DNA of 20,000 nucleotides from an uncultured virus (IMG/VR IMGVR_UViG_3300027852_000004) (IMGVR_UViG_3300027852_000004); one strand, 5' to 3'; shown: positions 15,960-20,000, counted from the stretch's first letter. The notes: generated by a model from the sequence alone, not told the origin. Translations and numbers: made by a program.

Positions 15960-16106
15960 TTAGACTTTAGCTTGTTCCTGTTTGAGAATTCCACCCAACC
16001 AATCCTGCCACTCCGTAACATCGTCAGTATCGTAGAGGGGTGATAATATAAAGAAGAAGTCACTGTCGGTAACAGCAACACAAGTCTCCACCTGTGTCAA
16101 GTTCAT
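15960..16106 (-). CDS. possible small acidic protein (48 aa)
   Basis: MNLTQVETCVAVTDSDFFFILSPLYDTDDVTEWQDWLGGILKQEQAKV fills the gap, but the strongest RBS serves an out-of-frame ATG at 16119. Confidence 0.35.
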   Translation of the reverse strand: MNLTQVETCVAVTDSDFFFILSPLYDTDDVTEWQDWLGGILKQEQAKV

Positions 16107-16840: not shown

Positions 16841-17180
16841 CGTTCATTAACTCCCTAGCTTTAGCGACACGCACTGGTGAGGGAAAGACTGATTGTTTAC
16901 GGTCACCCCAGATATGCATTTGAGGCCCATGCACCCAATCAAGCATAATCCAGTCACCTATCACAGCACAATCGAAGCTAGTGCCACATGCACTACACAT
17001 AAGGTTTACAGACACCCCATCTTCAGGCCCACTCAGGAGACTTTTTCGAGTACCACAACAAGGACATTCTGCTTTATACGTAAACCTTTCCATCAAGATT
17101 AATCCAGTCAGCTCACGTTTAAACATGAACCCAAAATAATCTTCTAACCATATGTACAAACGTCTTTTCAACTTACGCAT
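16833..17180 (-). CDS. zinc-ribbon protein
   Basis: CPCCG...GPEDGVSVNLMCSACG; start MRKLK with an AAGGAG RBS. Confidence 0.7.
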   Translation of the reverse strand: MRKLKRRLYIWLEDYFGFMFKRELTGLILMERFTYKAECPCCGTRKSLLSGPEDGVSVNLMCSACGTSFDCAVIGDWIMLDWVHGPQMHIWGDRKQSVFPSPVRVAKARELMNGG

Positions 17181-17388
17181 TGTTAGTCTCCTTATAGCTG
17201 GTTCCACCGTGAGTATTACGAAATGCACGGCGCTCAGCAGTAACGGCACGCTGGTATGTTATGGTGGCTTCACTGCCATGAGCAATTGCAGGTTGACACT
17301 TGGTGACCTCTTTGGTCTCCAGAAATGCATCAATGGCAGCTTGGTCAGATGATGTGATGGGGGTCTTACTTGATTTGACTGTAGACAT
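17173..17388 (-). CDS. small early protein
   Basis: 71 aa, AAGGA RBS, first gene after a strong promoter; AAIDAFLETKEVTKCQP motif. Confidence 0.7.
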   Translation of the reverse strand: MSTVKSSKTPITSSDQAAIDAFLETKEVTKCQPAIAHGSEATITYQRAVTAERRAFRNTHGGTSYKETNNA

Positions 17389-17426
17389 TATTTTTGTATC
17401 CTTTTGTTTTATGAATGTATGATTTT

Positions 17427-17455
17427 ATTATATAGCATCTATTTATAACACTCAA
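17427..17455 (-). promoter_or_regulatory. strong sigma70-like promoter, AGATGCTA class
   Basis: TTGAGT-17 bp-TATAAT with an AT-rich UP-like tract. Confidence 0.8.
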
Positions 17456-17537: not shown

Positions 17538-17782
17538 CACACATTCACTGCTACTACTACTCATTAGTTAGTGTTGGTGTTAGAGTTCTCCGCAACCTTA
17601 ACTTAGGTTCACACCATAAGTAAGTCACCTCTATGGGAGGAAGTTAAGAACCTGATTGAGTCTACCCCGTACCGCACAATGAAAATTCGACGGATTTCAA
17701 TATTGAAAGGTACTGAATACTCAAGGATCCTAATGCGGTAACAGCTAAGGCAAGTAAGTGGTATCTATAATACATACGGATC

Positions 17783-17791
17783 TGTGGATAA
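17783..17791 (-). promoter_or_regulatory. consensus DnaA box
   Basis: TGTGGATAA on + (TTATCCACA on -), directly preceded by GATC; function not shown. Confidence 0.5.
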
Positions 17792-17821
17792 TTGTAAGGG
17801 AGAAACCGTTGGTTAATTTAT

Positions 17822-17972
17822 ATACTGTCAAATTAACCCCCGGGAATATCCTGAAAACCAACGTTTTCTTCCCGCAAAAAATGTGGAGGAGTCGACAAGT
17901 TTTGAATTGTTTTTAGAACACGTTGTCAAGAAAAACATTCATACTGTCAAATTAACCCCCGGGAATATCCTG
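17822..17972 (+). repeat. perfect 32-bp direct repeat, 2 copies
   Basis: ATACTGTCAAATTAACCCCCGGGAATATCCTG at 17822-17853 and 17941-17972. Confidence 0.95.
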
Positions 17973-18001
17973 TAACCACCGGGATTGGCGCGATAAAGGT
18001 G

Positions 18002-18202
18002 TAGGTTAACTTATTGAAATATATAGATAATATTAGTTTCGTTGGTTAGTTAGTTATATCTAATATATAATAAAAAAGAAGTGGATGAATAAAAAAAGGT
18101 ATTAAAATATATAGAAAATATTTGTATATATATAGTATAAAATTAACCAACTAACCAACGGTTTCTGCCAATTTAGGTTAACTTGTTGAAAACATTAGAT
18201 AA
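18002..18202 (+). repeat. 29-bp imperfect direct repeat, 2 copies (IHF-like core)
   Basis: TAGGTTAACTTATTGAAATATATAGATAA (18002-18030) vs TAGGTTAACTTGTTGAAAACATTAGATAA (18174-18202), 24/29 identical. Confidence 0.85.
18040..18160. repeat. 17-bp inverted repeat flanking an AT-rich core
   Basis: CGTTGGTTAGTTAGTTA (18040-18056) vs TAACCAACTAACCAACG (18144-18160), 16/17 complementary. Confidence 0.85.
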
Positions 18203-18495
18203 AATCTGTGTGAGTATTGAATGACGTATGAGAATCCCCAGTAGTTTCACAATTTATTGTTAGAAATCAACTAGTTAAACCACCGGGTTTTCCAACGAAC
18301 TTGTTGTGTTGTGATATGGAGTGTACTTCTACGGAATGAATGATAGTGAATCTGACGTGGCTGTGTGTAGGTCCGATCTTGGCAGGACCTACAAAAATTT
18401 CGGTTTGTCAGGAAATCCCAACCTCCCTATTTTTAAAATTTGAACCGCGCTCAGTTACTAGCAACTTACCTGTAGCAGTGGTAAACAGGTTAAGC

Positions 18496-18525
18496 GTACC
18501 TACGTACTTGGTACCTACGTACCTG
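18496..18525. repeat. 15-bp tandem repeat, 2 copies
   Basis: GTACCTACGTACTTG GTACCTACGTACCTG. Confidence 0.85.
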
Positions 18526-18539
18526 GTCCTCACATGCAC

Positions 18540-18576
18540 AAAAAAAGACCCGAACCAGCGTACCGGAACGGATCTT
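18540..18576 (-). terminator. intrinsic terminator closing the early unit
   Basis: AAGATCCG-TT-CCGG-TACG-CTGG-TT-CGGGTCTT followed by a T run. Confidence 0.75.
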
Positions 18577-18597
18577 AGCTTTGTCAAGCGTTGGGCC

Positions 18598-18681
18598 CTA
18601 GAAGATGAGTGACGGGAGCACCAGTGCTACGAGGAGCACCAACATGACCCCGCCAAAGAAGTACAAGAGTACGTGGCCCAT
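18598..18681 (-). CDS. 27-aa single-pass membrane peptide
   Basis: Not in the track: MGHVLLYFFGGVMLVLLVALVLPSLIF; starts 1 nt after the upstream stop and ends before the terminator. Confidence 0.55.
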   Translation of the reverse strand: MGHVLLYFFGGVMLVLLVALVLPSLIF

Positions 18682-18682
18682 C

Positions 18683-18928
18683 CTACTTTTCTGTGGCAGC
18701 TTTTAGTGCATCGTTAACCAGGACGTTACGGACATGCTGGTACCGGATACCCATGAACCGTGAGATGTCAGCTCGTGTAAAACCTTCGGCCGACAGTTTA
18801 CGGATCACTGCAGATTTGGTGACCAGCTCTTTCATCAGGGCCGACAGCTCGTACGTATCACCCGGAAGTGCAACTTTGACTTCTTCGGTTTTTGCGACAG
18901 GTGCAGTGTTTGTTTTCTTAGTAGACAT
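18683..18928 (-). CDS. small HTH DNA-binding protein
   Basis: TKSAVIRKLSAEGFTRADISRFMGIRYQHVRNVL is an HTH pattern; GAAAGGA RBS. Confidence 0.8.
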   Translation of the reverse strand: MSTKKTNTAPVAKTEEVKVALPGDTYELSALMKELVTKSAVIRKLSAEGFTRADISRFMGIRYQHVRNVLVNDALKAATEK

Positions 18929-18982
18929 GATATGATCCTTTCAAGATCTAGATAGTAGAAACGTTATTGTTTCTATGATATT

Positions 18983-19012
18983 ATTATATAGCATCTTCAT
19001 ATTGGTACGCAA
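18983..19012 (-). promoter_or_regulatory. sigma70-like promoter, AGATGCTA class
   Basis: TTGCGT-18 bp-TATAAT; shares AGATGCTATATAATAA with the promoter at 17427. Confidence 0.75.
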
Positions 19013-19021
19013 GCATTATTT

Positions 19022-19279
19022 TCACCCTGGTGTTAAATTAATTTGTACCTGATTACCAACTACTCCGTCAGCCCGCCCAGCAGCAACATAGTAGTCTACC
19101 AGGAGCTCTATGTCTCTCATAGTAGAATGACCTGAGGCTACCATGTCCCTATGTTCGGCCTTTAGTTTTTCCAGTAGGGCCTGACGATTGGTCAACATCC
19201 AACCGAGTAACATACACGTTTCTAATTTGTCTTCCATTTCTTGACGGACTTGGATCATTGACTTACTAGGGCTTGACAT
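19022..19279 (-). CDS. hypothetical early protein
   Basis: Start MSSPSK after a GAGGAG RBS. Confidence 0.7.
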   Translation of the reverse strand: MSSPSKSMIQVRQEMEDKLETCMLLGWMLTNRQALLEKLKAEHRDMVASGHSTMRDIELLVDYYVAAGRADGVVGNQVQINLTPG

Positions 19280-19421
19280 TGTGGATCTCCTCACCATTAA
19301 TTGCGACGTACTCGACTTCGTCAGGACTGACTTTCCCTAACCAGTCTCGGATCTCTTCGAACGACATATTGGTAAACTGGAAGGCGTCCCGGTTACGAAC
19401 TAGTTTAATTTCGATGATCAT
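19266..19421 (-). CDS. small hypothetical protein (51 aa)
   Basis: Not in the track: MIIEIKLVRNRDAFQFTNMSFEEIRDWLGKVSPDEVEYVAINGEEIHNVKP; GAAGGA RBS. Confidence 0.65.
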   Translation of the reverse strand: MIIEIKLVRNRDAFQFTNMSFEEIRDWLGKVSPDEVEYVAINGEEIHNVKP

Positions 19422-19457
19422 GGTCTTATTCCTTCAGAGTGAATTCTAGGTTGGCTG

Positions 19458-19715
19458 TTATGTAGTACCGAATAGTTTACGTTGGGTCTTACCATTGTAC
19501 AGGATCGAGTAACGTTCGGTAGGCTTACCATTTACCGTTACCTGTACGTTACAGGACTTATCTTGGTACACTATTACCTTACCCTTACACGCGGTAGCAC
19601 ATGCTACGTCTTCCGTACCGGACGGTTCGGTTTCTAGTAGAAAGATACGCGGGTCACGTATCGATCGGTTTTTAGGGTACAGGTAGATAGTACCATCACG
19701 TAACGGGTTGTACAT
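19458..19715 (-). CDS. hypothetical early protein
   Basis: 85 aa; AAGGAG RBS. Confidence 0.7.
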   Translation of the reverse strand: MYNPLRDGTIYLYPKNRSIRDPRIFLLETEPSGTEDVACATACKGKVIVYQDKSCNVQVTVNGKPTERYSILYNGKTQRKLFGTT

Positions 19716-19726
19716 TGTTGGTCTCC

Positions 19727-19939
19727 TTAAGTTAGTAGGTCTGGATCTAGGGTACGTATGTTCTCTAGTACCTGTTCTAGTTGGTCGGGGTAACAGTTTT
19801 CTACCATGTTGATGAATAGTTCGGTAGGGCTAACATGTAAGGTACCTTTACATGTATGTAGTTCGGTTTCGTTCGGGTCTCTATTATCGACCTCATAACC
19901 TAGATTCGGTAACTTCGGTACGTAAGATTCGGTATTCAT
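19727..19939 (-). CDS. hypothetical early protein
   Basis: 70 aa; GAGGA RBS; TATAAT -10 element at 19973-19978, with the -35 cut by the window edge. Confidence 0.7.
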   Translation of the reverse strand: MNTESYVPKLPNLGYEVDNRDPNETELHTCKGTLHVSPTELFINMVENCYPDQLEQVLENIRTLDPDLLT

Positions 19940-20000
19940 TTTTTAGTCCTCTTATTTTGATGTACGTAATTAATTATAATATATTTTCGATGGTACTTTC

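Follow-up and report, generated by a model that had tools for sequence, protein, structure and literature searches.

A GpC-poor zone of small genes upstream of terS in a siphophage-type virus with a DpdA-like transglycosylase gene

The DNA examined here is a 20,000-nucleotide (nt) stretch, hereafter the window, of the uncultured virus IMGVR_UViG_3300027852_000004, and is the final 20 kb of a single-contig record of 64,777 bases. Its right end enters a zone of small open reading frames (ORFs) upstream of terS in which the dinucleotide step GpC is depleted and the word GTAC is in excess. Window coordinates are counted from the first letter of the stretch, and coordinates marked "genome" are counted from the first base of the genome record, whose bases 1-127 coincide with the window end. 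Beyond that end lie ~1.9 kb more of small minus-strand ORFs, followed by terS (genome 2028) and the terminase large subunit gene, so that the zone, from the repeat block described below to terS, spans about 4.4 kb, near 7% of the genome. The only named phages matching the primase-like protein or terS are MaInes and StAshley, two siphoviruses of Brevundimonas that are syntenic with this genome, and the virus is of the siphophage type.

The contig ends share 127 nt, giving a 64,650-bp circle as assembled. A biological terminal repeat at the window end was considered and ruled out, the exact overlap (positions 19874-20000 with genome bases 1-127) being the product of assembler circularization and the junction being spanned at 100% identity by a second record (L006). 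A Logan contig from a run labeled marine metagenome, possibly the source sample, showed 0 differences from positions 17943-20000 and breaks at a 35-nt repeat (17822/17941); elsewhere, at window positions 15990-16003, the Logan contig has four clustered differing positions. Depth was flat in the contigs of the sole Logan run with the DNA of this genome, and no RNA run was listed.

The core of the zone is a GpC-poor minus-strand unit at 19251-20000, likely one transcript, in which a promoter is followed by ORFs of 70, 85, and 51 amino acids (aa); it contains 14 to 15 GTAC and has GpC-free gaps of 180 and 184 nt. The promoter (19973-20000, minus strand) is the best sigma-70-like site of the zone, with 11/12 matches and an 18-nt spacer by consensus match only, and coincides with the right edge of the core hole; its -35 box runs 2 nt past the window end (L006 2337-2308 = window 20002-19973). 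Promoter-like sites were no commoner than in shuffled sequence in the sigma-70-like consensus scan (11 versus 12.7). The 70-aa ORF (19727-19939, minus strand) encodes no alanine, contains a single GpC, and has one homologue, 53% identical over 36 aa, in the relative G023; a protein search with it returned only itself. The 85-aa ORF (19458-19715, minus strand; 3 Ala, 5 GpC, 8 GTAC) belongs to no family, and the 51-aa ORF (19266-19421, minus strand) has 2 Ala and 3 GpC. A 91-aa ORF (19022-19297, minus strand) is intermediate, with 9 GpC against 14 expected.

To the left lies the gene for an 81-aa helix-turn-helix (HTH)-like protein (18683-18928, minus strand), the hallmark of the family considered below, in a unit that is GTAC-rich (10 copies) and not GpC-poor. 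Its paralogue, at genome 1392-1616, sits in a second GpC-poor unit (genome 850-1727). A promoter-like 23-nt repeat (18974-18996, minus strand) recurs with 96% identity at 17418-17440, a small minus-strand ORF lying downstream of each copy, and the 5' leaders of both HTH paralogues and of ORF 17173-17388 are alike. A 15-nt tandem duplication at 18496-18525 holds four GTAC. The zone is bordered by an AT-rich, GpC-poor block of direct and inverted repeats (17601-18400) that appears origin-like and fits a T5-type stop-signal border equally well. Among the zone ORFs scanned, all shorter than 100 aa, there was no PHROG family of known function at E<=0.001 and no Pfam match above cut-off, nor did the small zone ORFs have a family or a trustworthy look-alike. 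With its small genes behind sigma-70-like promoters, this terS-adjacent zone is probably early.

The initial annotation, made from the sequence alone, had reported a sharp skew in word usage in this region, and its counts proved exact: 14 GTAC and 7 GpC in 19441-20000, along with 34 CG, 72 TA, 6 CTAG, and 7 TTCGGT, and 26 GTAC in 18481-20000 as against 2 in 1-600. The genome mean per 560 nt is 2.4 GTAC and 28 GpC, and in 300 block-shuffled genomes no 560-nt window was as deep in GpC loss or held as many as 14 GTAC. The GTAC excess persisted after dinucleotide shuffling (14 versus 7.3, P=0.004; 26 versus 12.0, P<0.001). The same annotation held that the bias reaches the proteins and named its loss under codon or amino-acid control as a refutation. 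The 70-aa ORF indeed has 0 Ala where 5.9 are expected, and the bias survives nulls in which amino acids are fixed and codons follow genome usage: 9 zone ORFs had 55 GpC versus 73.7+-5.0, 10 GpC at codon junctions versus 24.2, 21 GCA/TGC versus 47.2, and 23 GTAC versus 9.2, compared with 300 GpC versus 299 in 19 small genes outside the zone.

What did not stand was the placing of the GpC shift just right of the repeat block, since 18401-19020 is normal (31 observed/33.1 expected) and the block itself is poor. The GpC-poor stretches are 17601-18400 (10/24.4, P=9e-4), 19251-19990 (10/33.1, P=2.5e-6), and genome 850-1727 (14/30.4). The observation is confirmed and falls into two separate parts, a GpC hole and a GTAC excess, of which the former, a real and family-wide feature, is the interesting half.

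The family was defined by the 81-aa HTH-like ORF, which returned 72 viral loci, most with terS beside the HTH gene. Besides MaInes and this genome, the sample comprised 22 long IMG/VR records; these divergent genomes were picked by length and not by word usage and have 39 to 56% G+C. In 19 of the 24 genomes, the lowest 800-nt GpC window was no more than 3.7 kb upstream of terS. In a stricter 600-nt test of 22 genomes, leaving out two records with <2.4 kb upstream, the deepest GpC hole was found 0.3 to 4.5 kb upstream of terS in 15, versus 1.5 expected. Other steps gave, of 22, CA 17, AT 6, AC 5, AA 4, and CC 3, down to 2 each for AG, CG, and GA and 0 for TA; the CA depletion was treated as mostly generic because CA/TG holes also occur near divergent or origin-like regions in several unrelated control phages. 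In MaInes, the deepest GpC hole covers MAINES_00430, which is preceded by a consensus promoter and encodes 58 aa, none of them Ala. Terminase-large-subunit neighbors from other families, mostly nonmembers, had no GpC dip, and a primase search in viral contigs found nothing. The contig ends of relatives cluster upstream of terS, 32/49 within 5.2 kb, which fits either genome ends or assembly breaks at repeats. Relative to terS, the replication module of G002, G004, and G018 has the opposite orientation to that of the remaining family genomes.

The depletion is organized by gene. Small ORFs with rho(GC)<=0.4, as called by a crude ORF caller, numbered 15/147 in the zone versus 2/883 outside, and hole edges are gene-sized, with normal neighbors and paralogues within the same zone. 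HTH-like genes of 60 to 160 aa occur in 1 to 4 copies upstream of terS in nearly all members, often with one short copy purged of GpC. When classed, 17 HTH copies were purged, 55 normal, and 22 intermediate; exactly one purged copy was present in 13 of 31 multicopy loci and none in the other 18. In flanks unused for the classing, the GpC ratio of the 17 purged genes was 0.22 in the 50 nt before the start and 0.15 in the 50 nt after the stop, compared with 0.89 and 0.75 for normal copies. Purged genes are AT-richer (41% versus 52% G+C). Unrelated proteins have lost all alanine, namely that of the 70-aa ORF described here, MAINES_00430, a 61-aa ORF of G020, and an HTH protein of G007. By context, the ratios in purged genes were, from small counts, 0.19 for GCA and 0.25 for TGC, 0.15 for GCC and 0.14 for GGC, and 0.35 for GCT and 0.34 for AGC; reverse-complement contexts are equally depleted, as predicted for a double-stranded target.

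Elsewhere, beyond the stretch open to the initial annotation, the genome carries the predicted means to modify guanine. By Pfam/NCBIfam matches the preQ0 pathway is complete (FolE, QueD, QueE, and QueC at genome 41528-44274), and a 269-aa gene without a family match (genome 40524-41333; L002:10524-11333) adjoins the polymerase gene. The model of its product is a barrel of the tRNA-guanine transglycosylase (TGT) type (predicted local distance difference test score 91; Foldseek E 5e-7 to tRNA-guanine transglycosylases), and its profile matches the bacterial DpdA 7ui4 (E 0.002). A TGT-fold DpdA-like gene was found in 23 of 28 family records, including all 14 that are at least 90% complete. The family enzyme is 28% identical (E 5e-8) to BSP7 AYJ76173.1, a listed DpdA3, and weak matches to DUF6610, a DpdA4 marker, were seen in 7 of 22 family members. 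The DpdA branch to which it appears to belong is unclassified, falls between the DpdA3 and DUF6610/DpdA4 types, and is common to the Bacillales phages BSP7, BSTP, and Youna2, whose homologues are annotated as hypothetical or misnamed integrase, kinase, or NadR. On visual inspection of a DpdA tree, genomes with strong holes were spread over several branches. The ORFs scanned, a part of those in the genome, included no methylase. Separately, a dATP/dGTP diphosphohydrolase gene (PF18909) lies at genome 34570-35127, and PurZ was not noticed among the ORFs scanned.

The explanation we favor, with a probability of roughly 45%, is that the phage leaves its own modification target, predicted to be the G in GpC, out of the genes that are read first. 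The DpdA-like transglycosylase would, after replication, replace the G of GpC with a 7-deazaguanine, about 23% of G here and 26% in MaInes if GpC is the target, and the virion DNA would then enter the host fully marked. The two small-gene units and the repeat block by the terminase gene, written nearly without GpC, would stay unmarked, and the units would be the first ones read from virion DNA. The benefit may lie in quicker transcription by the RNA polymerase of the host or in evasion of enzymes that act against modified G. A cyano group resembles an ethynyl group. Of the substituents on 7-deazaguanine, ethynyl and vinyl groups are the strongest inhibitors of bacterial RNA polymerases (PMC4838386), and the host glycosylase Dag1 attacks preQ0 DNA (10.1101/2025.10.29.685425).

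It was predicted, before the sequences were inspected, that the early region of a phage whose DpdA motif is known would be without that motif. Iggy modifies the motif GA at 97% of sites and has a 1,091-bp terminal repeat (PMC10484667). At 60001-60628 of its record (MN029011.1), GA was 5 observed/40 expected and TC 9/37, with GC normal, and in its first small genes, assuming that the record starts at the repeat, GA was 23/49 and TC 17/30, with GC normal or high. Viewed more broadly, 59600-60628 and 1-950 form a deep both-strand GA hole (11 versus 74 in 600 nt) beside the terminal repeat, unmentioned in the available parts of PMC10484667. CAjan, with the motifs GA and GGC (PMC7544227), has half-depth GA holes at 49960-50420 and 52650-53950, and GA holes were also seen at AT-rich or divergent points in R31B, PSTCR4, and phiSM and weakly in MiCath. 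Across the GA-modifying phages the holes are as low in TC (52/131) as in GA (87/173), and the equivalent regions of DpdA1-type phages keep GC at or above expectation. The GA-hole intervals were chosen after viewing the profiles, unlike the gene-level count, in which, with analyst-set cut-offs of 0.4 and 0.55, GC-poor to GA-poor small ORFs were 21:6 of 1,192 in the family and 2:11 of 456 in 11 DpdA1-type phages (Fisher P=4e-4), and neither kind occurred among the 134 of four further Dpd phages or the 262 of six QueD-lacking records (0:0 each).

Iggy and CAjan resemble the present genome in carrying a preQ0 pathway and a transglycosylase next to the DNA polymerase gene and, in this analysis, in having lost their own target step on both strands around an origin-like or divergent early region. 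They differ in that their enzymes are of the DpdA1 type, undetected by the profile of the family enzyme, and in that the lost step is GA, not GC. The nearest named phages are MaInes and StAshley (ON529866, ON529865; PMC10070969), syntenic siphoviruses with a 28% identical terS, a 39% identical primase-like protein, Que genes, a DpdA-like gene, and HTH paralogues, although they are distant in sequence and GTAC in the MaInes zone is not in excess (5 versus 7.5). The available parts of PMC10070969 say nothing on the termini or modification of either phage.

Several observations weigh against target avoidance as the explanation. Although the match to BSP7 relates the family enzyme to the DpdA3 subfamily, where the BSP7 gene is filed (PMC10516641 Data S1), the three DpdA3 phages tested, CP220, phiST, and immuto_2-6A, replace all G (PMC10516641), and with full replacement no motif would remain to be avoided. 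The link to these tested members is remote: BSP7 is 22 to 28% identical to CP220/phiST, and the family enzyme itself had no direct match to them at E<=1e-3. Youna2 and BSTP12 carry the same gene type without a GpC hole. The GA control is uneven, being strong in iggy, R31B, and PSTCR4 but weak or absent in JenP2, JG012, MMDA13, VpKK5, and RHEph06; the deepest GA hole of CAjan lies in its tape-measure gene, and a measured motif is available for iggy and CAjan alone among the control phages. GpC holes in single genomes were likewise seen in QueD-lacking phages (log P -4.8, -3.9, and -3.1), the deepest control hole (G033) being a low-complexity Asp/Lys-rich ORF. Within the family, the deepest hole lies elsewhere in 7 of the 22 genomes, which are related and not independent, so that binomial P values overstate independence, and a purged HTH copy was present in only 17 of 51 loci. 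Nor is initiation, where PMC4838386 places the polymerase inhibition, the step that the holes follow: they follow the transcribed stretch instead. Farther upstream than the purged 50-nt flank, the DNA is just mildly poor, at 0.7 to 0.8 where it adjoins that flank and near 0.9 to 1.1 beyond, and several purged genes keep a GC beside the -10 box, a poor fit with an initiation block. The top promoter-like sites genome-wide are not GpC-poor (ratio 1.00), and pooled ORF-free blocks of 16 genomes were near neutral (0.92), so that origin-block avoidance is weak as a family rule.

The main rival, which we consider unlikely though the strongest of the alternatives, is a host defense factor that reads GpC (an RNase, an mRNA-modifying toxin, or a DNA reader), with the genes acting before its neutralization lacking the step. 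It would account for the hole tracking the transcribed stretch better than the promoter, needs no motif-specific DpdA, and fits the null in Youna2/BSTP12. Short-word precedents exist, CmdT modifying GA in mRNA (10.1101/2024.02.24.581662) and MqsR cutting GCU and sparing GCU-free mRNAs (PMC4905990), both with two- or three-letter targets whose absence would spare a transcript. As a lead only, the nearest predicted-structure cluster of the HTH protein has MazE-antitoxin fusions in 26% of its members. CmdT and MqsR are, however, strand-specific, whereas the depletion here is strand-symmetric and not centered on GCU: GCT, the MqsR site, is with AGC among the least depleted of the contexts given above, compared with GCA and GCC, and reverse-complement contexts fall together, unlike what is expected of an MqsR-like RNase. 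In this genome the probably untranscribed repeat block is also low in GpC, the loss of TC alongside GA in the GA-modifying phages is unexplained by an mRNA reader, and no GpC-reading host factor was found in the literature searched. The "gpC" of the DancE preprint is a lambda protein, irrelevant to the GpC step.

Less probable still is that GpC is under no selection, and that fast-evolving, partly noncoding near-origin DNA has drifted by local mutation bias and slippage. Such drift would agree with the recurrence of CA/TG holes in the zone (17/22) and in several unrelated control phages, with the lower G+C of purged genes, with the tandem microduplications, and with the favored words differing by genome (GTAC, GATC, CTAG, and CCGG). 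It accords poorly with the gene-sized edges next to normal neighbors and paralogues, with the loss of all alanine from unrelated proteins, and with the GC retained in the equivalent regions of DpdA1-type phages.

The initial annotation had also put forward the idea that the zone is seeded with sites for a methylase or binding protein. In a wider form, GTAC, or in relatives some different 4-bp palindrome, would have been placed there deliberately to be recognized by a methylase of the host or a DNA-binding protein, or to act as decoys. We regard this as very improbable. GTAC stands at about three times its neutral level, an excess that dinucleotide shuffling does not remove, and in 17/22 genomes the zone exceeds the remaining sequence in palindromes without GC, with strong single-word excesses in G020 (GATC, 55 versus 18), G001 (CTAG, 18 versus 3), and G006 (CCGG, 20 versus 4). 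But GTAC is no family trait (median log2 ratio 0.00 over 22 genomes), its zone excess reaching P<0.01 in this genome only (34 versus 12.8); its spacing is irregular, its flanks are not conserved, no methylase was seen among the ORFs scanned, and seeding would leave the GpC hole unexplained. The 4-mers gained here (GGTA, GTAA, TACA, and GTAC) are transition products of those lost (GGCA, GCAA, and TGCA), and part of the excess reflects local slippage because four copies sit in one 15-nt tandem. We read the GTAC excess as a lineage-specific by-product (GCA/TGC to GTA/TAC, plus slippage) and not a signal, an account that would explain it in part only. Upstream of terS, a strong excess of one 4-bp palindrome, differing by genome (GATC, CTAG, or CCGG), was noted in G020, G001, G006, G017, and MaInes. 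GACC/GGTC is within the top three enriched 4-mers in most family genomes and low genome-wide in this one, and the unrelated phage L029 (G033) had 0 GTAC in the 15 1-kb bins examined.

Least credible is the T5 precedent originally invoked, first-step-transfer DNA purged of restriction sites and injected in two steps: the size of the zone (T5, 7.9% of the genome), its repeat-rich noncoding border, the pileup of relatives' contig ends upstream of terS, and the established avoidance of sites in leading regions (PMC10644984; PMC12455610) are in its favor, but palindromes without GC are enriched in 18481-20000, the opposite of avoidance (4-mers with G/C but no GC step, 87 versus 38 expected; 6-mers, 34 versus 15), only the GC step is lost, no known-function family, T5 A1/A2 included, was matched among the zone ORFs scanned, and the contig ends may be assembly breaks, as at the repeat where the Logan contig of this genome ends. 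T5 first-step-transfer DNA and Murciavirus (PMC10644984; PMC12455610; 10.1101/866236) do share with the zone a motif loss confined to a short, variable region of small genes; there, a 4- to 8-bp site of the host is lost, whereas the loss in the present zone concerns a step of 2 bp, proceeds one gene at a time, and is accompanied by a rise in restriction-type palindromes.

Neither regional motif avoidance nor motif-specific G modification is new in itself. Their combination, motif-free early units in modifying phages, was not found in the literature searched, nor in the available parts of the iggy and CAjan papers. DNA base modification is described as protection and may carry a cost for early expression of the phage's own genes. 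Should a host reader be the cause, the holes would point to an undescribed GpC-reading defense. If target avoidance is the cause, it may be, and here we are more tentative again, that modifying phages write their first-read units and origin without their own target, so that the hole reveals both the specificity of the enzyme and the genes needed first. The large, mostly uncultured family studied here would then supply the first DNA-guanine transglycosylase specific for GpC, from a branch thought to replace G throughout. The cultured phage MaInes makes this reading testable. With DpdA specificity measured for two phages in the literature found, such holes would provide a sequence-only predictor of it and would flag the genes needed in the first minutes of infection.

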